From Candidatus Limnocylindrales bacterium (GTDB lineage Bacteria; Chloroflexota; Limnocylindria; Limnocylindrales; CSP1-4): a stretch of 64,000 nucleotides of DNA. The stretch is taken from the NCBI GenBank assembly GCA_049514315.1, contig JBEKVD010000001.1, forward strand, positions 4,380 through 68,379, written 5' to 3'. A program made the translations under genes and the position numbers. Below, one piece after another: positions 31,615 through 56,368 of this stretch. The notes beneath the pieces are model-generated. The model had not been told where the DNA came from. It ran no database searches and worked only from the letters and a program-made list of their open reading frames with translations. Numbering within the stretch: the stretch's first letter is position 1; the number at the start of each line of letters is the position of its first letter.

Positions 31615-32402
31615 CTACGGGGCGCTGGCGGTCGACGAAATCGGCCGGCGCAGGAGCCGCAGCGACACCGACTGCACCGCCGCCACGGCCAGAAGCGCGC
31701 CGGCGAAGGCAGCCGCAATCCCCAGCGGCTCGATCGCGGTCGTGACCACGAGGAAGAAGACCGTCGTGCCGAAGAGTCCTACCTGCAACCCTCGCACCAC
31801 TCCGAGGGCCTGATCGGGCCCCTCCAGGTGGTGGGCGAAGACTGCCAGCACCGACACGTAAACCGGCACGGCCGCGAGAAGGCCGCTGGCCTGCGCCCCG
31901 AGGAACCCGGCGGCCTCCGTAACCGCAAGGACGACCGCGGTTCCAACGACCATTCGGGCGGGGATGTCCCAGGAGGGGAGTGGCCGAGGGTCACGCGCTC
32001 GGGTGGCCGGGGGCGCGAGGCGCAGCAGCACGGCCATGGCGACGTCGACCGCGACGAAGACGACCAGCGCGGGCGCTCCGAGGATGGGCGTGGTGGCCAG
32101 GGCCGCGACCACGAAGGCGGCGCCACCTCCGAGGAGCGATGCCGGCCAGTCGAGCCTCCGCGCCAGCCAGCCGTAAGCGAGTGCGAAGGCTGCGTCCCCC
32201 AGCAGCCCGCCGATCGACCCCCGGGCTGCCCCGGCGGCGAAAGCCGGTCCGCGATCCAGGGCCAGGTAGAGAGCCACCGGTCCGGACGTGAGCGGCAGCG
32301 CCACGAGCCAGCCTCCGATCGAGGGCCCCCACCGTCGGGCGGCCAGGCTTGCGCAGCCGATCAGGATCGGTGTCAGGGTCAGCTTGAGGAGAAGCAGGGC
32401 CA
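31615..32402 (-). CDS. polytopic membrane protein of unknown function (~7 TM)
   Basis: The likely GTG start gives VALLLLKLTLTPILIGCASLAARRW... The upstream half of the 410-aa ORF is Arg/Pro-rich and non-coding-like. It lies downstream of the hydrogenase protease on the same strand. Confidence 0.5.
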
Positions 32403-32515
32403 CGCCCGAAGGGTATAGCGGCGGCCCGGACGGGGCGGACCGGTTCAGACGACGCGGTGTGGCGGCGGACAGGCAGCGCCTCGGCCGGCAGGCGGCCGCG
32501 CCTGGATTGGGGGGC

Positions 32516-33010
32516 TCAGCCCGTCGGAGTGGCGGCGAGCCGGCGGATCTCGGCGGCGATGGCGGCTGCAAACGCGGGCATTGCCGCGAGCACGTCCTCC
32601 GAGGGCGTCTCCCCGAACCCGAACTCGCTTGCGCCGATGCCCACGAAGGTGCCCCGCGCAGGCGAGCCGCGCAGCTCGGCGGCGAGGGCCAGGACCTGGT
32701 GCGGCGGCAGCGCGTGCGAGGAAGCGGGGCTCGCTCCTCTCCCCGCCGACCGCACCACTGCCTCGAGCGGCAGAACCACGATCCGTCCCGCGGGAATGCC
32801 AACGGCCGCATCCGCCACGACCACGGCCGCCTCTGCGGGCACGTCAAGCAATGCCTCGATGCCCAGCTGGGTCAACTCAATGACGGTGGCCAGCGCCAGG
32901 ACGTCCGCCGGCAACATGCCCGCGGCGAGTGGGGCAGCAGCATCGTCTCCGCGGAGCCGCTCCCCGCAGAGCAGGACGTGGACGCGGCCGGGTTTCGGGC
33001 GCTCGCTCAT
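32516..33010 (-). CDS. [NiFe]-hydrogenase maturation endopeptidase (HyaD/HybD/HycI family)
   Basis: 164 aa. RVHVLLCGERLRGDDAAAPLAAGML...VVVADAAVGIPAGRIVVLPLE is the characteristic metal-binding D/E/H layout of these proteases. Confidence 0.7.
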   Translation of the reverse strand: MSERPKPGRVHVLLCGERLRGDDAAAPLAAGMLPADVLALATVIELTQLGIEALLDVPAEAAVVVADAAVGIPAGRIVVLPLEAVVRSAGRGASPASSHALPPHQVLALAAELRGSPARGTFVGIGASEFGFGETPSEDVLAAMPAFAAAIAAEIRRLAATPTG

Positions 33011-33259
33011 GGGCTCAGCGGATTCTACGGCCCGAGTACGGCCATAGCGAAGGCATTCCAGCCAGCCGCGGATCGGGTGGCCGGTTGTTCGATCTCAACA
33101 GACGGACGTCCACGAGCCCTCTGGACAGGCCCAACTCCCATCCCGGTGAAGTTGGGCAAGACGCTCCCGCCCCGGTTCTCCCACCCGGTCGGACGCCAGG
33201 ACGCCGCCGCCTGCGCTCGTCGGACCGAAGATCCGCGGCGCTCGACCGCGAATCCGGGC

Positions 33260-34573
33260 TCAGTCGCGGTCGATCTCGAGCTTGAGGAAGTGCGTCGCGC
33301 AGCTGATGCAGGGATCGTAGGAGCGGATCAGCTGCTCGAGCCGGACGGTGGCCTTGGCATGCGGCAGAGACAGCACCCGCGGCGCGAACTCGGCCAGGTC
33401 CTGCTCGATCATGCCCTGGTTCTGGCCGGTGGGAGCGATGATCTGGGCGGCTGCGACCCGGCCGGCCTCATCGACGTCGTAGTGGTGCCAGCAGATGCCG
33501 CGCGGTGCCTCCGTGCCCCAACCTGTCTCGCCGGGGCGCGGGGTCCAGGGCGTGAACGCCCGAACCGGCTCTTCGTAGGTGTTGACGATATCCAGGGCGG
33601 AAGCCGACGCGTGGATCAACTCCACGGACCGGGCCGCGATAGCCCAGTACGGGTTGCTGGCGATCTGCCCGGCCAGTCCGCTGGTCTTGAGTGCCTCCCG
33701 CGCCAGCGGGTGGAGCTGGTCGGCGTTGAGGGTCACGCGCGCCGATGGGCCGAGCATGTAGGTGCGACCGTCGGTCGTTCGGGCGTGGAGCGCGTTCGTG
33801 CCCTCGTGCTGCTCCTCGTGGAACGCCTCGCGCCAGCCCCAGAGCGGCACGTCGATTCCATCGCTCGACACGATTCGGCCCTCGTTGAGGCCGTATTCGA
33901 CCGGGTGCTTGATCGCGACGTAGAGAGGATCGCGCTCGAACTTGGGGGCCTTGAAGGTGGCGACGAGCTTGAGGGTCGCCTGCGACAGGGCCAGGGCCTC
34001 CCCCAGCGGCTCCCGCATCGCCGCGATCTGCTCCCGTGTCGGCGTCCGCGAGAGCCCGCCCACCCGCATCGCCACGGGGTGGATGGCCCGGCCGCCGATC
34101 AGCTTCATGATCTCGTTGCCGGTCCGCTTCAGGCGCAACGCCTGCTCGACCACCGGCTTGTGGTCGCGGGCCATGGCTATGGCGCTCTCGTAGCCCAGGA
34201 AGTCCGGTGCGTGGAGCATGTAGACGTGGAGGGCATGGCTCTCGATCCACTCGCCCCAGTAGAGGAGCTTGCGAAGAGCTCGAACCTGGGGGTCGATCTC
34301 GACCTCGAACAGGTGCTCGAAAGCCATCGAAGCACCCATCTGGTAGGCGATGGGGCAGATGCCGCAGATGCGGGCGACGATGTCGACGACCTCGTTGGGC
34401 GTCCGACCCACGACCAGCTTCTCGAAGTAACGTGGCGCCTCGAAGATCGAAAGGCGCGCCTCGCGCACCTCACCATCGGTGATGCGGAGCCGAAGCGTGC
34501 CCTCGCCTTCAACTCGCGCGATCCCCACGACCTCGAAGTTGTGCTGGCCGGTCGCGACTTCTACCTTGGCCAT
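33260..34573 (-). CDS. [NiFe]-hydrogenase large subunit, group-3-like, 437 aa
   Basis: The N-terminal L1 motif is RICGICP, with an upstream RVEGEG in place of RIEGH[AG]. The C-terminal L2 motif is DPCISCATH followed by a 9-aa cleavable extension. A PCxSCxxH motif is typical of cytoplasmic group 3 enzymes. An AGGTGA RBS is present. Confidence 0.85.
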   Translation of the reverse strand: MAKVEVATGQHNFEVVGIARVEGEGTLRLRITDGEVREARLSIFEAPRYFEKLVVGRTPNEVVDIVARICGICPIAYQMGASMAFEHLFEVEIDPQVRALRKLLYWGEWIESHALHVYMLHAPDFLGYESAIAMARDHKPVVEQALRLKRTGNEIMKLIGGRAIHPVAMRVGGLSRTPTREQIAAMREPLGEALALSQATLKLVATFKAPKFERDPLYVAIKHPVEYGLNEGRIVSSDGIDVPLWGWREAFHEEQHEGTNALHARTTDGRTYMLGPSARVTLNADQLHPLAREALKTSGLAGQIASNPYWAIAARSVELIHASASALDIVNTYEEPVRAFTPWTPRPGETGWGTEAPRGICWHHYDVDEAGRVAAAQIIAPTGQNQGMIEQDLAEFAPRVLSLPHAKATVRLEQLIRSYDPCISCATHFLKLEIDRD

Positions 34574-34858
34574 TGGTCTGTCACCTGGTTGTATGCCTGC
34601 TTAGCTGGACCCGAGCCCTCCGAGGGTGCCCGATTCTCAGCCGTGCGGCATAGGGCCGTTTGTCGTCCTTGACCGTGCCCGTCGTTCCCTGCCAGGATGC
34701 CGTGGGGGGTACCCGGAGGGCGCCCCGGCCGCGCGGGCTGCGCGACAGCCGGCCGAGTCTGCCCGTGGCTACAATCCGGGCTGGTCCCGCGGCCGTGCCG
34801 GCGGGCCCGATTGGGAGCGACGAGATGGCAGCCCCGAAGCGGCCTTGATGGAACGACT

Positions 34859-36616
34859 GTGAGCGCCCTGGACCGCGATTGGTGGAAGCGCGCTGTCTTC
34901 TACCAGGTCTACCCGCGCAGCTTCGCCGACTCGAACGGCGACGGCGTCGGCGATCTTCCCGGAATCACCGCCCATCTCGACCACCTCAACGACGGCACGC
35001 CCGACTCGCTGGGCGTGGACGCGATCTGGATCTCGCCGTTCTACCGCTCGCCGATGGCCGACTTCGGTTACGACGTGGCCGACTACCGCGACGTCGACCC
35101 GGTCTTCGGCAGCCTCGCCGACTTCGACGAGCTCGTGGCTCGGGCGCACGGCCGCGACATTCGGGTCGTCGTCGATTTCGTGCCCAACCACACCTCGGAT
35201 CGTCATCCCTGGTTCCGGGAGTCTCGGTCGTCGCGGACGAACCCCAGGCGCGACTGGTACGTCTGGGCCGATCCGGCACCGGACGGTGGGCCTCCGAACA
35301 ACTGGCAGAGCCGCTTCCGGATCGGCAGGGCATGGACGTTCGACGAACGGACCGGCCAGTACTACCTGCATTCGTTCCTGCCCGACCAGCCCGACCTGAA
35401 CTGGTGGAATCCGGCTGTTCGGGAGGAATTCGAGGCGATCCTTCGCTTCTGGCTCGATCGGGGCGTGGACGGCTTCCGCGTCGACGTGGCGCACATGATG
35501 CTCCAGGACCCGGAGCTGCGGGACAACCCGAAGTCGCTCATCGCCCGGTCGCGTCGGATGGACGAAGACTGGCCGGAGGTCCACGAGATTCACCGCTCCT
35601 GGCGGCGGCTGCTCGATAGCTACGGCGACAGGATGGCGGTCGGCGAGGTGTTCGTTCCCGACCCGAAACGGATGGCCGCCTACTACGGCGCGGCGAACGA
35701 CGAGCTCCACCTGGTCTTCAACTTCACCTTCCTGCGCCAGCCCTGGGTCGCTTCGGCGTTTCGCGAGGCGACCGAATCATTCGAGCGGGTGCTGCCGGCG
35801 GGCGCCTGGCCCGACTACACGCTCTCGAACCACGATGTCGGTCGTGCTCGCAGCCGGTATGACTCAGGCGCGGGCGGCGGGCGCGGCCCGGTGGGTCTGG
35901 GCCGGGCCCGGGTCGCGGCGATGATGCTCCTGACCCTGCGCGGGACGCCGTTCATCTACTACGGCGAGGAAATAGGCCAGGCCGACGCCGAGGTGCCGCC
36001 GGAGCGGGCGGTGGACGTTGACGGCCGCGATCCGGAGCGGGCCCCGATGCAGTGGGCGCCGGGCCGCGGCGCCGGCTTCACGACCGGCGAACCGTGGCTG
36101 CCGATCGGGTCTGAAGCGGATCGCGTCAACGTGGCGGCGCAGCGGGGCGACCAGGGGTCGATGCTGAGCCTCTACCGCCGGCTGATCTGGTACCGGAAGC
36201 GATCGGCGCCGCTCCTCCACGGTATCTACCGCTCGCTCGATGCGCCGGAGGGCGTCTTCGCATTCGTGCGTGAGGCGGCCGGCGAGGCGCTGCTGGTGGC
36301 CCTGAACTTCACGAACCGGGAGGTCCGGTTCGACGCGGCGGCATTGTCCCCGGCGCGTTCGGAGGGAGTCGATGGCGATGGGTCGGCGGCCGGCGCCGAG
36401 CCGCGGCTTGGGGCCGGCCGTCCGGCTGCGGCTGAGCTGAGGGCCGTGGCCCAGCCACCGGCCGCGCCCAGGTCGCCCGCGCACGGCATTCTCGAGCTCT
36501 CCACCGTCGCCGACAGGCCCACGGGCCTCCCGGTTTCACTCCGGCCGCTGAGCCTCGGCCCGATCGAAGGCGTCGTTGTGCAGTTGGGACGACCCGAGCC
36601 GGCGCCGACCGTCTAA
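34859..36616 (+). CDS. GH13 alpha-amylase-family glycosidase (alpha-glucosidase / oligo-1,6-glucosidase / trehalose-synthase-like)
   Basis: GH13 conserved regions are DAIWISPFY, VVVDFVPNHTSD, GFRVDVAHM and the C-terminal FIYYGEEIG. The GTG start is chosen because the upstream part of the ORF is Arg-rich. Confidence 0.8.
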   Translation: MSALDRDWWKRAVFYQVYPRSFADSNGDGVGDLPGITAHLDHLNDGTPDSLGVDAIWISPFYRSPMADFGYDVADYRDVDPVFGSLADFDELVARAHGRDIRVVVDFVPNHTSDRHPWFRESRSSRTNPRRDWYVWADPAPDGGPPNNWQSRFRIGRAWTFDERTGQYYLHSFLPDQPDLNWWNPAVREEFEAILRFWLDRGVDGFRVDVAHMMLQDPELRDNPKSLIARSRRMDEDWPEVHEIHRSWRRLLDSYGDRMAVGEVFVPDPKRMAAYYGAANDELHLVFNFTFLRQPWVASAFREATESFERVLPAGAWPDYTLSNHDVGRARSRYDSGAGGGRGPVGLGRARVAAMMLLTLRGTPFIYYGEEIGQADAEVPPERAVDVDGRDPERAPMQWAPGRGAGFTTGEPWLPIGSEADRVNVAAQRGDQGSMLSLYRRLIWYRKRSAPLLHGIYRSLDAPEGVFAFVREAAGEALLVALNFTNREVRFDAAALSPARSEGVDGDGSAAGAEPRLGAGRPAAAELRAVAQPPAAPRSPAHGILELSTVADRPTGLPVSLRPLSLGPIEGVVVQLGRPEPAPTV

Positions 36617-51507: not shown

Positions 51508-52805
51508 GACGCCGGTTTGCGGGAGCCGGAGCGGGTCTCCGTTTCGCGACCGACGGTCCCGCGACCAACGGTCCCGCGACCAACGGTCCCGCCGATTTCG
51601 GCATCCCCGGCAACGAGGCGCACCGTCCTCCGTTCCCCAACGATGGTCCCCAGTTCCACGAGACGCGCCAGCCGCTCGCCGGCCTGGGCGACCAGGTCCG
51701 CAGCCTGGCTCATCGCATCCTCCAGCGTCATCGGCCGGTCCAGCACCGGGACCGCCAGCGTCCCGGCCGCGGCCAGCACGGCGGCGCCCTCAGGCATGAC
51801 GCCACCGCCGACGGCCAGACAGGGAACCCCGGCCGCGGCGGCTCGCCTGGCCACTCCCAACGCCGTCTTCCCGTACGCGGTCTGCTCGTCGATCCTGCCC
51901 TCGCCGGTGATCACCAGGTCGGCGGACGCCAGTCGTTCGTCGAAGCCAGTCTCCTGCATGACCACATCGATTCCCGGGACCAGCTCGAGCGACCGCATCC
52001 GCGGGGCCAGGCACAGCAGGCCAAAGCTGGTCCCACCGGCCGCTCCGGCCCCCGGAACGTCACGGGCCCGCGTTCCGGCCGCCTTCTCGAGCAGGTCGGC
52101 GTAGCGGGCCAGCCATTCCTCGAGGACCGCCACGTCTTCCGGCCATGCCCCCTTCTGCGGCCCGTAAACCGCCGCCGCGCCCTGCTCGCCGAGGAGCGGG
52201 TTGGTCACGTCGCAGGCGATGCGCATCTCCATCTCATGGAGCCGCGGGTCCAGCGAAGCAAGGTCCACTGCTGCCAGGTCCGGAACCGGCCCCCGCAGCC
52301 GGCCGTCCGAGCCGCTTCGATACCAGACGCCCAGGGCGTGGAGCAGGCCGGAGCCACCGTCCGTGGTGGCGCTGCCGCCCACGCCCATCAGGACGTGGCG
52401 AACGCCCGCGTCGAGGACCGCCCGCAGGACCTCGCCCGTGCCCTCGGTTGTAGCTGCGATCGGGCTGCGAGGCTCCCCTGCGGGCAGGCGCGACAGGCCG
52501 GAGGCCTCGGCCAGCTCAACTGCGGCGCGCGCGCCGTCGGCCGAGAGCAGCCATCGCGCCGTGAGAGGGCGACCCAGCGGGTCGTGAGCCGGGCATTCCT
52601 GCCACTCCCAACCGCCCGTTTCGGCGATGGCGGCCAGCGTGCCCTCCCCTCCGTCGGCGAGGGGGGCCCGAATCAACTCGTCCTGCGGGCGGGCCCTCGC
52701 CCAGCCCTCCGCCAGGGCCCGCGCCACTTCGACCGACGAGAGGGACCCCTTGAAGGAGTCGGGCGCGAGCAGTACCCGCAGCCCATCGCGCCGGTGCTCG
52801 CTCAC
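51504..52805 (-). CDS. Glycerate kinase (GlxK/GarK family) with C-terminal (TVGRG)3 repeat tail
   Basis: The core RVLLAPDSFKGSLSS...VTNPLLGEQGAAAVYGPQKG...DLVITGEGRIDEQT matches the glycerate kinase family. The probable start is GTG at ~52805. The rest of the 696-aa ORF is Arg-rich and not coding. Confidence 0.7.
   Translation of the reverse strand: MSEHRRDGLRVLLAPDSFKGSLSSVEVARALAEGWARARPQDELIRAPLADGGEGTLAAIAETGGWEWQECPAHDPLGRPLTARWLLSADGARAAVELAEASGLSRLPAGEPRSPIAATTEGTGEVLRAVLDAGVRHVLMGVGGSATTDGGSGLLHALGVWYRSGSDGRLRGPVPDLAAVDLASLDPRLHEMEMRIACDVTNPLLGEQGAAAVYGPQKGAWPEDVAVLEEWLARYADLLEKAAGTRARDVPGAGAAGGTSFGLLCLAPRMRSLELVPGIDVVMQETGFDERLASADLVITGEGRIDEQTAYGKTALGVARRAAAAGVPCLAVGGGVMPEGAAVLAAAGTLAVPVLDRPMTLEDAMSQAADLVAQAGERLARLVELGTIVGERRTVRLVAGDAEIGGTVGRGTVGRGTVGRETETRSGSRKPAS
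51547..51591 (-). repeat. 15-bp tandem repeat x3 within the glycerate kinase 3' end
   Basis: The plus-strand sequence is cgaccgacggtcccg cgaccaacggtcccg cgaccaacggtcccg. Confidence 0.8.
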
Positions 52806-54856
52806 GCCTCCGTCCCCATCGAGGCGCCGGAGGCTGCCGAATCCATCCCAGCCGAGCCCACGCTCGGCGTCTCCGACACGGCCGGGCCGATGCTCGACGG
52901 CAAGGCGGTCGCGGCGCGACCGCCTTGGCCGTCGAGCATCACTGCCGCGGCGTCGCGATGGCGCTTCTCGAGATACTCGGGGATGCGAATCATGGGCGGC
53001 CTCTCGTGGTCGGCAAGCTCGATAACCTCCAACCCCAGTCGTGCGCGGCCCGATCGCGGCAGCTTCATCGTCGAGCCCAGCTCGGCGAAGAGCCGGGTCT
53101 TGCTCCTTTCCTCGACTCGTTTCATGACGGCCTGCAGGATCACGAAGCTCATCCGAGAGAGGCCCTCGAGCTCCTGGTTGCGATGCACCCTTCGCTCCAG
53201 GTCCACCTGGCCCAGCCCTTCGAGGCCGCATCGGTCGGCCACGTCTATGAGGTGCCCGATCTCGACCGCGTAGCCGGTGAAGAAGGGCAACGTCTCGAGC
53301 AGTTCCCGCCGTCCGGCGTACTCGCCCGCCAGGGGCTGGATGAGACCCGACAGCTCCGGAAAGAAGAGGTTCAGCAGCGGCCTGGCGACGAGTTCGGTGA
53401 CCCGGCCGCCGCCGCCCTCCTTGAGGACGCCGCCCTCGACGATCGGCCGCCGGTAGTAGCCTTTGACATACTGGATACGTTCCTCGGCGATGAGGGGTCC
53501 CACCGTCCCGTAGACCATCCGCGGATGCCAGTTCCGGACGTCGGTGTCGGCCCAGGCGACCAGGTCGCCGCTCGTCTCGAAGAGGCTCTTCCACAGAGCC
53601 TCGCCCTTGCCCGAGTAGCTTCCGTATCGTGTCAGGACCTGCTGGTGGACGACGACGCGGGCGCCCTCCGTCTCGGCCACCGCGCGGGTTCGATCGGTCG
53701 AATCGGAATCGATTACGAGCAGCTCGTCGACCAGCGCATGGCGTTCCATCAGGTCGCGCCGCGCCCTCTGGACGATGCTCCCGATCGTCTCCTCTTCGTT
53801 GAGAGTGGGCAGCACCAGGCTGACAGTCAGTCCCTGTTTGCGCTTCAAGTCGACCAGGCGGTCCAGGTCGCCGAACTCGCGGTGATGGAAGTTGGATTCT
53901 CCGAACCAGCGCTCCACCCGCAGTGGAATCGATCGAGCCTCGATGGCGGCGCGGTCGGCCGCCGCCAGCGTCTCGGCCCGCGCCTCGAGCTTCTCGAAAG
54001 TGGCCTTGCCGATCGCCTCGCGCGTCTTGACGACGATGACCGTAGTGCGCGACCTCGTTGCAACTGCCTCGGGCAGCGCCCCGAACAGGAAGGCCTCGCC
54101 GTGGCCGGCGGCCGGCATGGCCGACGCCCCCATGACGACGAGGTCCGCGGCTTCGGACTCACGCAGGATCGCGTTGCGCACGTTGGCGGCCTCTCGGACG
54201 GCCCCCTCCACCTGGCCGTCGGCGTGCTGGCGGATGAAGTGCGCCAGGGCACGTTCCGACTGCGTTCGTATGCTCTCGGCGACACCCCGTGGCACGAAGT
54301 GCAGGGCCACAACCTTCGCCTCGTTGCGATGGGCCAGGGCACCGGCAACGCGCAGGGCAAGCTCGGCGTGGGGGCCGCCGCGGATCGGCACGAGAATGCG
54401 GCGGATCTCGGAAGGGCCGCGCTGCTTGATCACGGCGATGTCGCACGGCGCGTCCCGAACGACCTCGTCGATGGTCGGCGAGAAGACCGACGCCCGGGCA
54501 CCGGGCCTCGCCGTCGTGGGCTTCCCGCCCCAGCCGAAGACAATCAGGTCGGCGTCCAGCTCAGTAGCTGCCTCGATGACTCCCTCTGCGGCCCGCCGCC
54601 CGATTCGAACGATGGGGTGGATCGTGACGCCTTCGGGGGCGTAGTCGAGGACCCGCTGCAGCAGCCGGCGAGCCTGGCGCGCCCGGGTCGCGCCCTCGCT
54701 CAGTGGGGTTTCCTCCGGGACCTCTACTATCCCGAGGACGGTCAGCACACCCGTCCGGCGATCCATCAGCGACGCGCCGATGCGCACCAGCTCCTGGGCG
54801 GTGAGGGGGTTGGCGACGGGAATCAAGATCCGCGATGGCAGCGGGGCCCTGGTCAT
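52802..54856 (-). CDS. Fusion protein: tandem universal-stress-protein (UspA) domains + glucosyl-3-phosphoglycerate synthase-like GT81 glycosyltransferase
   Basis: N-terminal USP-like halves (ILIPVANPLTAQ...LIVFGWGG; ILVPIRGGPHAE...LVVMGAS). The C-terminal GpgS-type GT-A domain has SLVLPTLNEEETIGSIV...LVIDSDSTDRT (DxD). Confidence 0.7.
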   Translation of the reverse strand: MTRAPLPSRILIPVANPLTAQELVRIGASLMDRRTGVLTVLGIVEVPEETPLSEGATRARQARRLLQRVLDYAPEGVTIHPIVRIGRRAAEGVIEAATELDADLIVFGWGGKPTTARPGARASVFSPTIDEVVRDAPCDIAVIKQRGPSEIRRILVPIRGGPHAELALRVAGALAHRNEAKVVALHFVPRGVAESIRTQSERALAHFIRQHADGQVEGAVREAANVRNAILRESEAADLVVMGASAMPAAGHGEAFLFGALPEAVATRSRTTVIVVKTREAIGKATFEKLEARAETLAAADRAAIEARSIPLRVERWFGESNFHHREFGDLDRLVDLKRKQGLTVSLVLPTLNEEETIGSIVQRARRDLMERHALVDELLVIDSDSTDRTRAVAETEGARVVVHQQVLTRYGSYSGKGEALWKSLFETSGDLVAWADTDVRNWHPRMVYGTVGPLIAEERIQYVKGYYRRPIVEGGVLKEGGGGRVTELVARPLLNLFFPELSGLIQPLAGEYAGRRELLETLPFFTGYAVEIGHLIDVADRCGLEGLGQVDLERRVHRNQELEGLSRMSFVILQAVMKRVEERSKTRLFAELGSTMKLPRSGRARLGLEVIELADHERPPMIRIPEYLEKRHRDAAAVMLDGQGGRAATALPSSIGPAVSETPSVGSAGMDSAASGASMGTEA

Positions 54857-56368
54857 CGGTCCGCCTCCACGACTCCCACGGCCGGCGCGGTCTCGGCAGG
54901 CTCCGCGGTGTCGAGGGGCTCGGTGACCGCAGTGGCCCGCGCCGGGGCAACCCTGGCGGCTTCCGCGGCCTCCGCCGCAGCGCCATCGGCCGCCTGCCGC
55001 CATCGCTCGACCAGGTAGGGCTTCAGGACCTCGAACTCCCGGGCCTGCCGCTCAACGTGGTCCTCGGCCTGCTCCTCGGACAGCCAGCGGTTCTCGATGA
55101 CAAGGCTCCCGACCCGGCCGAAGTAGATCGGCACGAACCCGGCGACGAGCCGCTCGACCTCCACGCTTCCAAAGCTTGCCGAGACCAGCAGGTCGTAGAC
55201 GACGCGGGCCCACAGGTCATCTGGGAAGTAGAACGTGGCCACGGCGTCGGATAGCTCGTCCGTGGACGGCATCGCCCGCCCGGCCGTGCCCTCGCCGGAC
55301 TGGCGGCTCAACCCGAGCCGGTGCGCCGCGGCCTCGGCCAGCTTTCCTGCCTCAGCCGCAAGGTCAAGGACGTGGCTGCAGTCGGCCGGCGTGACGAACC
55401 CGCGCCAGGTTTCGGCGAGGGTCAGCGAGCCCGAGTGGAATTGTGCCAGCAGGCGGAGTGTGTCGACCTGGAGCGGAATCGGCTCGACGACCCGCTCGAA
55501 ACCATAGGCTGGAACGTCGTGACTGCCTGTGATGGCAAGCCACCGGTCGGCGTTGTCGCGGGCCATGGTGAGCATCGTGCCGACGACCTGCCGGAACATC
55601 GGGCCGAGGTCCGAGCCGGGATCCTTGGGGTCGTGGATCTTGGCCCCGAGGCGCGTCTGGCAGACGGCGAACCCGCCCGTCAGCGCCGTGGTGGTCATCC
55701 AGATGTCGATGCCGAACCGGGAAACGTCGGCGGTCCAGCTCTCCTGCTCGAGGTAGTAGCGGATCAGGTCGCCGCTCACGCCGAAGTCCCCGCCGATCGG
55801 CTGGCGGATGCGGTGCCCGTACAGAGCCCGCGTCAGCGGATAGGTGACGGTGTTGGTAATCGTGCCGTCGTACTTGTGGCGGGCATAGAGTGGTGCCACG
55901 AAGTCGTAGCCGCCCTTCAGGATCGGTCCCGCCAGCAGCTCGATCCACTCGGGCACGATCGACCGCAGGTCGGAGTCCACGACAACCAGGGCTTCGACCT
56001 GGAGCGCGGCGGCCATCTCGAAGAGGGTCCGCAGGGCCGCGCCCTTGCCGCCGATGCCGTCCACCTCGGGGTAGGTAAGGCTGACGCGATCGAGGCGGTT
56101 GGTCGGTTTGACCAGCAGAATCTGCTCGACGTAGCCGGGCGGCTCGGTCTCGACGACCACACGCTGGGTGCCGTCCGGGGAGCCGGCGTCGGCATTCACC
56201 AGGACCGGGCGCAGGTCTGGGAAGTACTGGACCAGGCCGGCCTGGGCCGCCCGGACGACGTGCCCGATGGTGGCCGCGTTCCGGTAGCTCGGGATTCCGA
56301 CCATTATGTCGGCGCAACCGAGCCTGGCAATCTCGTCCTTGATTGCTGGGGTGAGCGCGCTCGACGGC
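54853..56368 (-). CDS. GT-A fold glycosyltransferase (possible glycosyl-glycerate/phosphoglycerate synthase family)
   Basis: IMVGIPSYRNAATIGHVV...LVVVDSDLRSI (DxD-like) ...GGDFGVSGDL. It overlaps the USP-GT81 gene by 4 bp. The Arg-rich upstream part of the ORF is excluded. Confidence 0.55.

Follow-up and report, generated by a model that had tools for sequence, protein, structure and literature searches.

A gene for the large subunit of a [NiFe]-hydrogenase lies, together with a maturation protease gene and without a small-subunit gene, in a 64-kb window of the genome of a Candidatus Limnocylindrales bacterium (64,000 nucleotides of contig JBEKVD010000001.1; "the window" below always means this whole stretch). 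Comparison with related metagenome-assembled genomes (MAGs) indicates that this orphan large subunit very probably belongs to a group 3b hydrogenase whose genes are split over two loci of the same genome. The enzyme is expected to be cytosolic, NAD(P)-linked and of the "sulfhydrogenase type", its assembly, cofactor, activity and direction being judged from what is known of the family. Locus 1, in the window, would express the large subunit and its C-terminal maturation protease from a conserved upstream element of its own. Locus 2, elsewhere in the genome, would supply a cyclic nucleotide monophosphate (cNMP)-binding protein, a fused HydB/HydG iron-sulfur/FAD-NAD(P) module (HydBG) and the small delta subunit. 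HypA-F, presumably encoded elsewhere, would build the Ni-Fe(CN)2CO centre into the pro-large subunit, the adjacent protease would cut off a 9-residue tail after His428, and the matured large subunit would dock onto the trans-encoded small subunit and HydBG module. The assembled enzyme would then exchange electrons between H2 and NAD(P)(H). This reading is drawn from the gene content of the two loci, their conservation, the purifying selection seen on both and their co-occurrence in MAGs.

The large subunit is matched by PF00374 (E=2e-28). Its top full-length NCBIfam models are the sulfhydrogenase alpha model ShyA, then HydA, then others, and the ShyA and HydA scores (263 and 241 bits) are far under the archaeal equivalog cut-offs of 700 and 880. 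The nearest solved structure is the alpha subunit of Pyrococcus furiosus sulfhydrogenase I (SHI; E=5e-66 over large-subunit residues 17-432), followed by the alpha subunit of the cytosolic NiFe-hydrogenase of Thermococcus kodakarensis (E=1e-63), and Mvh, Frh and Hox score far lower. On the basis of the ShyA/HydA matches and these closest solved relatives the protein is classified as a bacterial group 3b enzyme, a placement that follows the ranking of PDB and NCBIfam matches. Both Ni-Fe ligand cysteine pairs are present, in RICGICP (C70/C73) and in DPCISCATH (C422/C425, with H428), and both are invariant in all 27 genomes with an orphan large subunit and in full-operon relatives. The tail FLKLEIDRD follows His428 and is conserved as FL.LE[IV][ED]R[DS], and the proton-gate glutamate, the APRG arginine and the PT motif are conserved as well. 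The motifs RVEGEG, RICGICP[IV]AYQ and DPCISCATH with the 9-residue tail are common to full-operon relatives, including Streptomyces and other Actinomycetota. An earlier sequence-only reading of the window had described the N-terminal RVEGEG as atypical, yet bacterial group 3b enzymes from full operons normally carry it, and SHI alpha of P. furiosus has RVEGKG. The protease, whose gene begins 249 bp downstream of the large subunit, passes TIGR00072 (E=1.5e-17, 63.9 bits against a cut-off of 47.45) and reaches only 17.5 bits with Pfam HycI (cut-off 23). Its candidate metal ligands, read by eye from the sequence, are GDD, ADA and SSH, and it shares 49% identity with the protease encoded after the large subunit in the complete operon of a related genome (L036).

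Several relatives keep a complete operon. In L036, where the large subunit is 67% identical to that of the window, the gene order is cNMP-binding protein, fused HydB/G (674 aa), small subunit (300 aa), large subunit and protease, and the operon sits at the syntenic site, with DNA ligase on one side and a block of L25, response-regulator, histidine-kinase and trypsin-PDZ genes on the other. In L037 (71% identical) the order is HydBG-small-large-protease without a cNMP gene, and the flanks are shared only partly, with a universal-stress-protein (Usp) gene upstream and L25 downstream. Complete operons are also present in L042 and L043 and in the more distant L027, L029, L030 and L032, and in L028 the small and large subunits are adjacent with no HydBG match. 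The large subunits of full-operon Limnocylindrales and Actinomycetota are 41-71% identical to that of the window and have identical active-site motifs, and in L036, L037, L042 and L043, which are Limnocylindrales operons, the protease gene comes directly after that of the large subunit. Because L036 keeps the full operon between the same flanks, the cNMP-HydBG-small segment is judged from gene order to have left the syntenic site in the lineage of the window, where the large subunit and protease stayed. The 285-bp region upstream of the window's large subunit would accordingly stand in the place of the cNMP-HydBG-small genes of sister lineages. A short protein consisting only of a cNMP-binding domain (154-170 aa), which may act as a regulator or as a subunit, is first in the operon in most Limnocylindrales loci (L036, L042, L043, L047 and L125) and is missing in L037.

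The second locus was found by scanning metagenome contigs with a profile of Limnocylindrales-type small subunits, which gave 80 loci. A large subunit is immediately downstream in 72 of them, and in four the contig ends too early. The other four (L046, L047, L048 and L086, with only ~500 bp of downstream sequence in L048) have no adjoining large subunit, and L046, L047 and L048 are close to each other. Look-ups added L127-L131, which brought the cNMP-HydBG-small loci of the window-clade type to eight, L047 and L129 being the same contig; in none of the eight is a group-3b large subunit found beside the small subunit. The look-ups also gave L124-L126, a type of large-less locus belonging to the lineage of the orphan locus L038. 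A 44-member cluster of small-subunit homologues had been considered as the partner set and was rejected, as its members turned out to be full operons; the true partner small subunits ranked near the bottom of the top 120 homologues (P0226, P0237 and P0238).

In the large-less loci the gene for a cNMP-binding protein (154 aa) comes first, then HydBG (659 aa) and the small subunit (265 aa), and beyond them lies an unrelated gene in convergent orientation. HydBG contains Fer4_22, NAD_binding_1 and DHODB_Fe-S_bind domains, and the small subunit is of the Oxidored_q6 type and retains 12 of 12 Fe-S cysteines, enough for three Fe-S clusters. NCBI names these loci Candidatus Limnocylindrales, and their GC content is 0.68. 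The tetranucleotide distance to the centroid of the orphan clade is 0.010-0.012 for the four longest (L047, L127, L129 and L130), which falls within the spread of the orphan clade itself and below the distance of every full-operon locus, and the composition of L124/L125 matches that of L038. The ratio of nonsynonymous to synonymous substitutions (dN/dS) in the large-less loci is 0.06-0.13 for the small subunit and 0.08-0.11 for HydBG at dS of ~0.45-0.6, indicating purifying selection at a comparable depth. The NCBI small subunit P0370 belongs to the MAG JBTECU01 (L131), which is outside the orphan list. In this MAG the C-terminal 202 aa of a different, HoxH-like [NiFe] large subunit are encoded next to the large-less small subunit and convergently with it (L131:5823-6431, minus strand); the fragment is 30% identical to the window's large subunit and has DPCFSCSSH and a longer tail. 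From this fragment it appears that related genomes hold a second hydrogenase and presumably hyp genes.

Both halves occur together in one MAG and probably in five more. The MAG GCA_021789435.1 holds them on two contigs, of which JAJYJO010000041.1 (L038) carries Usp (minus strand), 361 bp of intergenic DNA, the large subunit and the protease without a small subunit, and JAJYJO010000109.1 (L125) carries cNMP-HydBG-small without a large subunit. Within a single genome submission, GenBank numbers protein accessions and locus tags in succession. The same-assembly pairing in five further MAGs was inferred from accession or locus-tag proximity. In the MAG of the window the large subunit is MGA2512030.1 and the small subunit MGA2513168.1 (P0474; all 12 cysteines present), 1,138 accessions apart. 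In DASWZK01 (L002) the large subunit HEY1169210.1 and the small subunit HEY1168575.1 (VGE81_06320; the DUF3147 membrane protein described below is VGE81_06685) are 635 apart. The MGD04 series has MGD0409186.1 and MGD0408730.1 (large and small; gap 456), the HEX series has the large subunit HEX7496465.1 with HydBG HEX7496329.1 and cNMP HEX7496330.1 (gaps 136 and 135), and the MGZ series has the large subunit MGZ6268155.1 with HydBG MGZ6267926.1 (gap 229). The membrane protein of the window is ABSG37_00190, which places the large subunit at about the 40th gene of its MAG. Counting the direct case and the five pairings by accession, six MAGs each combine a single orphan large subunit with a single large-less HydBG-small locus, and no single contig with both loci was found. 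Neighbour-joining trees also speak for the split: the small subunits of the large-less loci (L125 and the L047 type) group in a single clade, and the large subunits of the orphan loci fall beside L038/L037. The sequence-only reading had called the large subunit stand-alone, which holds for the position of the gene and not for its partners, whose genes are at a distant locus; its premise that the small subunit has to be encoded beside the large one was too strong, and the distant small subunit that it had offered as one option is supported by the large-less loci and by their co-occurrence in MAGs. About 9 kb upstream of the orphan large subunit in L017 (L017:5-1086) there is a phosphodiesterase-metallo-beta-lactamase pair in the same order as a pair flanking the small subunit in L129/L130, with 51-61% amino acid identity; it is probably paralogous to the flank of the large-less locus.

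Among species-representative genomes, 27 Candidatus Limnocylindrales or "Chloroflexi" MAGs from peat, fen and soil were found to have the same orphan arrangement. The gene order is ligase (minus strand), large subunit (plus strand), usually a paralogue of the membrane protein, protease, membrane protein, TetR and, further on, L25. The large-subunit open reading frame (ORF) is uninterrupted and exactly 437 codons long, with no indels, in 27 of 27 genomes. Pairwise Nei-Gojobori estimates within the orphan clade gave the large subunit a median dN of 0.08, a median dS of 0.65 and a median dN/dS of 0.12 (range 0.05-0.27), a ratio that matches that of the neighbouring DNA ligase (medians 0.093, 0.758 and 0.118, respectively); the corresponding medians for the protease are 0.259, 1.046 and 0.25. 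Orphan large subunits were also compared site by site with 44 sequences from clades whose full operons are verified or presumed. Only six changes are fixed and specific to the orphan clade (R139K, V169M, L221I, P228G, P380A and S383G), orphans vary at no more than three sites that full-operon enzymes conserve, and 120 positions are invariant in both sets. Nothing in this comparison of sequences pointed to decay, to the loss of an interface or to a new use of the active site. In L023 (positions 871-2053), from the fragmentary MAG fen_1046, tblastn matched the large subunit in two pieces that overlap (871-1758 and 1709-2053), and neither covers query residues ~302-322, as would be expected from a local rearrangement, a deletion or an assembly error.

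The orphan large subunit has an upstream motif of its own. The 15-nt sequence CGACAAACGGCCCTA precedes the gene in 31 of 31 orphan-clade copies (the window and 30 loci: L001-L026, L031 and L033-L035) with at most one mismatch and with none in 27 of the 31, and it sits in otherwise diverged intergenic DNA. Downstream of it are a conserved GCA(A/C)CCTC block and then a CCAGGTG(G/A) Shine-Dalgarno sequence. The motif is absent from L036, L037 and L038, from the regions upstream of full operons and from the large-less loci. No Rfam match and no consensus fold for an RNA element were found upstream of the large subunit, and a scan for promoter and terminator consensus sequences found nothing, such a scan being uninformative in this high-GC phylum. 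CGACAAACGGCCCTA is probably a promoter or operator now used by the stranded large-subunit gene. Upstream of the cNMP gene, the large-less loci share a conserved block of their own, GCAACGGGGCCGAATGGCCC...GACCTGATGGCACT (L130:1330-1502, L127:7330-7501, L131:2330-2501 and L125:560-728), which loosely resembles the large-subunit motif (CAAnCGG..CC..AT). Co-regulation of the two loci through these similar blocks is possible.

The features around the large subunit are given in Table 1. The layout reported in the sequence-only reading, that is the coordinates, the cysteine pairs, the C-terminal extension, the adjoining protease and the 285 bp before a divergent GH13 gene, was correct throughout.

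Table 1. Features of the window near the orphan large-subunit gene (positions are those of the window)
Feature	Position	Strand	Details
Polytopic membrane protein, probably tandem-DUF3147	31615-32403	-	262 aa; cluster neighbour
Hydrogenase maturation endopeptidase (HycI/HybD/HoxW family)	32516-33010	-	164 aa; TIGR00072
Gap between large subunit and protease	33011-33259	-	249 bp; holds a second tandem-DUF3147 gene in most relatives
[NiFe]-hydrogenase large (alpha, catalytic) subunit, bacterial group 3b type	33260-34573	-	437 aa, with 9-aa C-terminal pro-peptide
Upstream intergenic region of the large-subunit gene	34574-34858	-	285 bp; divergent from GH13
15-nt motif CGACAAACGGCCCTA	34651-34665	-	starts 92 nt upstream of the large-subunit ATG
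GH13 gene	34859-36616	+	divergent from the large subunit

The GC content of the window is ~69%. No similarity to a small subunit or to HydBG was detected across the window, including the upstream 285 bp (tblastn, E<=1), and no Oxidored_q6 or small-subunit similarity was found within +-10 kb in the 27 related genomes. No hyp gene was found in Pfam scans of the other long ORFs of the window with high GC at third codon positions or in the Pfam annotation of the central ~21 kb (L033). The absence of small-subunit and hyp genes nearby, noted in the sequence-only reading, thus extends to the window as searched in these ways. TetR, ABC-2 and MFS genes come after the membrane-protein gene. Only the window and the near-identical contigs L033-L035 have GH13 between the ligase and the large subunit; in other orphan genomes, where GH13 is absent from this place, the ligase is 0.2-1.3 kb from the large subunit, and GH13 therefore appears to be a later insertion. 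At 52802-55003 (minus strand) the window encodes a 733-aa ORF made up of two Usp stretches and a family-2 glycosyltransferase domain.

The membrane protein, read from the sequence alone as an unclassified protein with seven transmembrane helices, is rather internally duplicated, with 2 x ~4 helices (internal repeat E=2e-6), and is probably a tandem-DUF3147 protein, the duplication being in favour of two DUF3147-like halves. The window's own protein scores E=2.3 with PF11345, its 74%-identical homologue P0245 passes the model in two stretches (26.2 bits against 23.6), and NCBI names the homologue P0266 "DUF3147 family protein". An AlphaFold2 model (predicted local distance difference test score 92.8) is all-helical and has no fold match among solved structures in PDB. 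The suggested comparison with HupE/UreJ nickel permeases (PF04955/PF13795) gave no Pfam match even at E<=10, and the HPxxGxDH signature is absent; the family is probably DUF3147. H191 is the sole conserved histidine of the family, which has no His/Asp/Cys signature and no conserved Cys/His pattern for a redox cofactor, heme or metal site. In most relatives a 40%-identical paralogue (A) separates the large subunit from the protease, and it occupies this position in 21 related loci. Some relatives lack one DUF3147 copy or the other, and L018 and L038 lack both. Paralogue A is wholly lost in the window, L006, L014, L018 and L024, with no remnant detectable in the window, and L003 (11539-11661) keeps a 41-aa remnant that is 80% identical to its N-terminus, the gene being in decay in some lineages. 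From the double absences and this remnant the DUF3147 copies are judged to be dispensable. Those that remain in the cluster are under purifying selection (dN/dS 0.16-0.20), and 52-54%-identical homologues occur in unrelated neighbourhoods. In L040 (2714-6786) and L041 genes for FdhD and a 778-aa molybdopterin oxidoreductase that stands alone have a 54%-identical tandem-DUF3147 gene immediately after them. This second case of a redox catalytic subunit beside such a membrane protein may be coincidental. The membrane protein is most likely an unrelated or accessory neighbour and not a part of the enzyme.

Several points weigh against a hydrogenase divided between two loci. The link for the genome of the window rests on accession-number proximity and composition, the binning of MAGs can err, and the subunit trees are not fully congruent. 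The large subunit of L038 is closest to that of the full-operon L037 (83%), whereas for the small subunit and HydBG encoded in its MAG (L125) the window-clade type is nearest (76% and 70%) and L037 is further off (66% and 60%); the 154-aa cNMP gene is kept in both large-less types and is absent in L037. Because these affinities of L038 and L125 disagree, the history is judged from the sequences to be more complex than one translocation, and they suggest either two independent losses in genomes with a pre-existing HydBG-small locus, duplication followed by reciprocal loss, or module exchange. In addition, the retention of one or two tandem-DUF3147 genes inside the large-protease cluster in most relatives is left unexplained by a split enzyme. 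In a related explanation, suggested by the near-invariant upstream element and by the DUF3147 genes wedged in before the protease, the unlinked large subunit would be made independently of HydBG-small and have a second life, for example docked at the membrane through the DUF3147 protein or serving more than one electron-transfer module. Its ancestor may have had a full operon and an extra large-less HydBG-small locus, which would explain the disagreement between the small/HydBG and large-subunit trees. This elaboration is considered unlikely.

A large subunit that truly works by itself, as an H2 sensor, a slow activator of H2 or the seat of new Ni-Fe chemistry, possibly tethered to the DUF3147 protein or acting with it, would leave HydBG-small to serve some other reaction. 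Isolated large subunits such as HoxG of Ralstonia eutropha keep weak H2-activating activity, and the near-invariant upstream element and the DUF3147 genes kept under selection between the large subunit and the protease in most relatives would fit such a role. It is nevertheless quite improbable: HydBG-small would then be left with no catalytic partner of its own, although selection on it is just as strong and it co-occurs with the large subunit in six MAGs. The large subunit shows neither relaxation nor remodelling, with no more than the three newly variable sites, and the DUF3147 copies are individually dispensable, have paralogues in unrelated contexts and offer no Cys/His redox or metal pattern. 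The non-hydrogenase use of the fold proposed in the sequence-only reading has likewise found no support, as ligands, tail and protease are conserved. Its other proposal, a relic decaying after deletion of the electron-transfer genes, agrees with the disappearance of HydBG and the small subunit from the syntenic site and with the broken match in L023; it is rejected, and is almost certainly wrong, in view of the intact 437-aa ORF in 27 species, the median dN/dS of 0.12 reached at dS 0.65, the 120 invariant positions and the retained protease and C-terminal tail. The pairing itself could be an artefact in which half-operons of different co-occurring Limnocylindrales populations have been merged by binning, so that the orphan would pair with another small subunit (for example of the HoxH-like kind seen in L131) or with none. 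All genomes concerned are MAGs without a contig that spans both loci, the small and large trees are partly incongruent, and at least one related MAG has a second, HoxH-like hydrogenase. Such merging is very unlikely, given that the same pairing recurs in six MAGs that are independent of each other and cover four or more accession series (JAJYJO, MGA, HEY/MGD, HEX and MGZ). The composition of the large-less loci is within the range of the orphan clade, with L124/L125 matching L038, and, in the close relatives examined, the full operons each have their own large subunit, which leaves the large-less loci without another obvious partner. The division of one group 3b hydrogenase between two loci remains the preferred explanation.

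The enzyme would be of a known kind and its chemistry is expected to be ordinary; the organisation of its genes is the unusual part. Literature searches found no account of unlinked group 3b small- and large-subunit genes or of orphan large subunits in Limnocylindria. A survey of the Chloroflexi supergroup left out genomes whose large subunit had no nearby small subunit (10.1101/2021.08.23.457424). An adjacency filter of this kind would drop an abundant peat and fen clade of Candidatus Limnocylindrales from counts of H2 metabolism, and a classification based on the large subunit only (HydDB style) mis-scores the locus. The adjacency of small and large subunits in a soluble [NiFe] hydrogenase can evidently break and stay broken across a clade (dS ~0.65), which implies that assembly in trans would be efficient enough and that the catalytic subunit can gain separate transcriptional control. 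The clade may therefore serve as a natural system for the study of how large-subunit maturation and small-subunit docking are coordinated without co-transcription.

The closest known systems are the group 3b enzymes, namely the SHI of P. furiosus (HydBGDA), the Hyh of T. kodakarensis and bacterial homologues in Actinomycetota and Chloroflexota. The large subunit aligns end to end with SHI alpha and shares with it RVEG(K/E)G, the CxxC pairs, DPCxSCxxH and a short tail, and the partner set is the same as in SHI, namely a beta/gamma diaphorase module and a delta small subunit. Unlike in archaeal SHI, beta and gamma are fused here (659 aa), as in bacterial relatives, a cNMP-binding protein leads the operon, and the alpha gene and its protease are unlinked from beta, gamma and delta. 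In full operons (L036, L037, L042, L043, L027, L029, L030 and L032) the stop of the small subunit overlaps or abuts the start of the large subunit, whereas in the window 285 bp of non-coding DNA with a new conserved motif precede the large subunit. The nearest known precedent is in some Synechococcus strains, where the hox genes of the bidirectional (group 3d) soluble hydrogenase are split into hoxEF and hoxUYH clusters whose products assemble in trans. The break in cyanobacteria falls between the diaphorase and hydrogenase moieties and leaves hoxY and hoxH adjacent, whereas here it separates the small subunit from the large one. HoxG and HoxC of R. eutropha and HyhL of T. kodakarensis are large subunits that have been studied in isolation in vitro, and they resemble the orphan in that a large subunit exists without its small subunit during maturation, before the tail is cleaved. 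Those are laboratory preparations from normal operons, whereas in the Limnocylindrales clade the genes are naturally unlinked.

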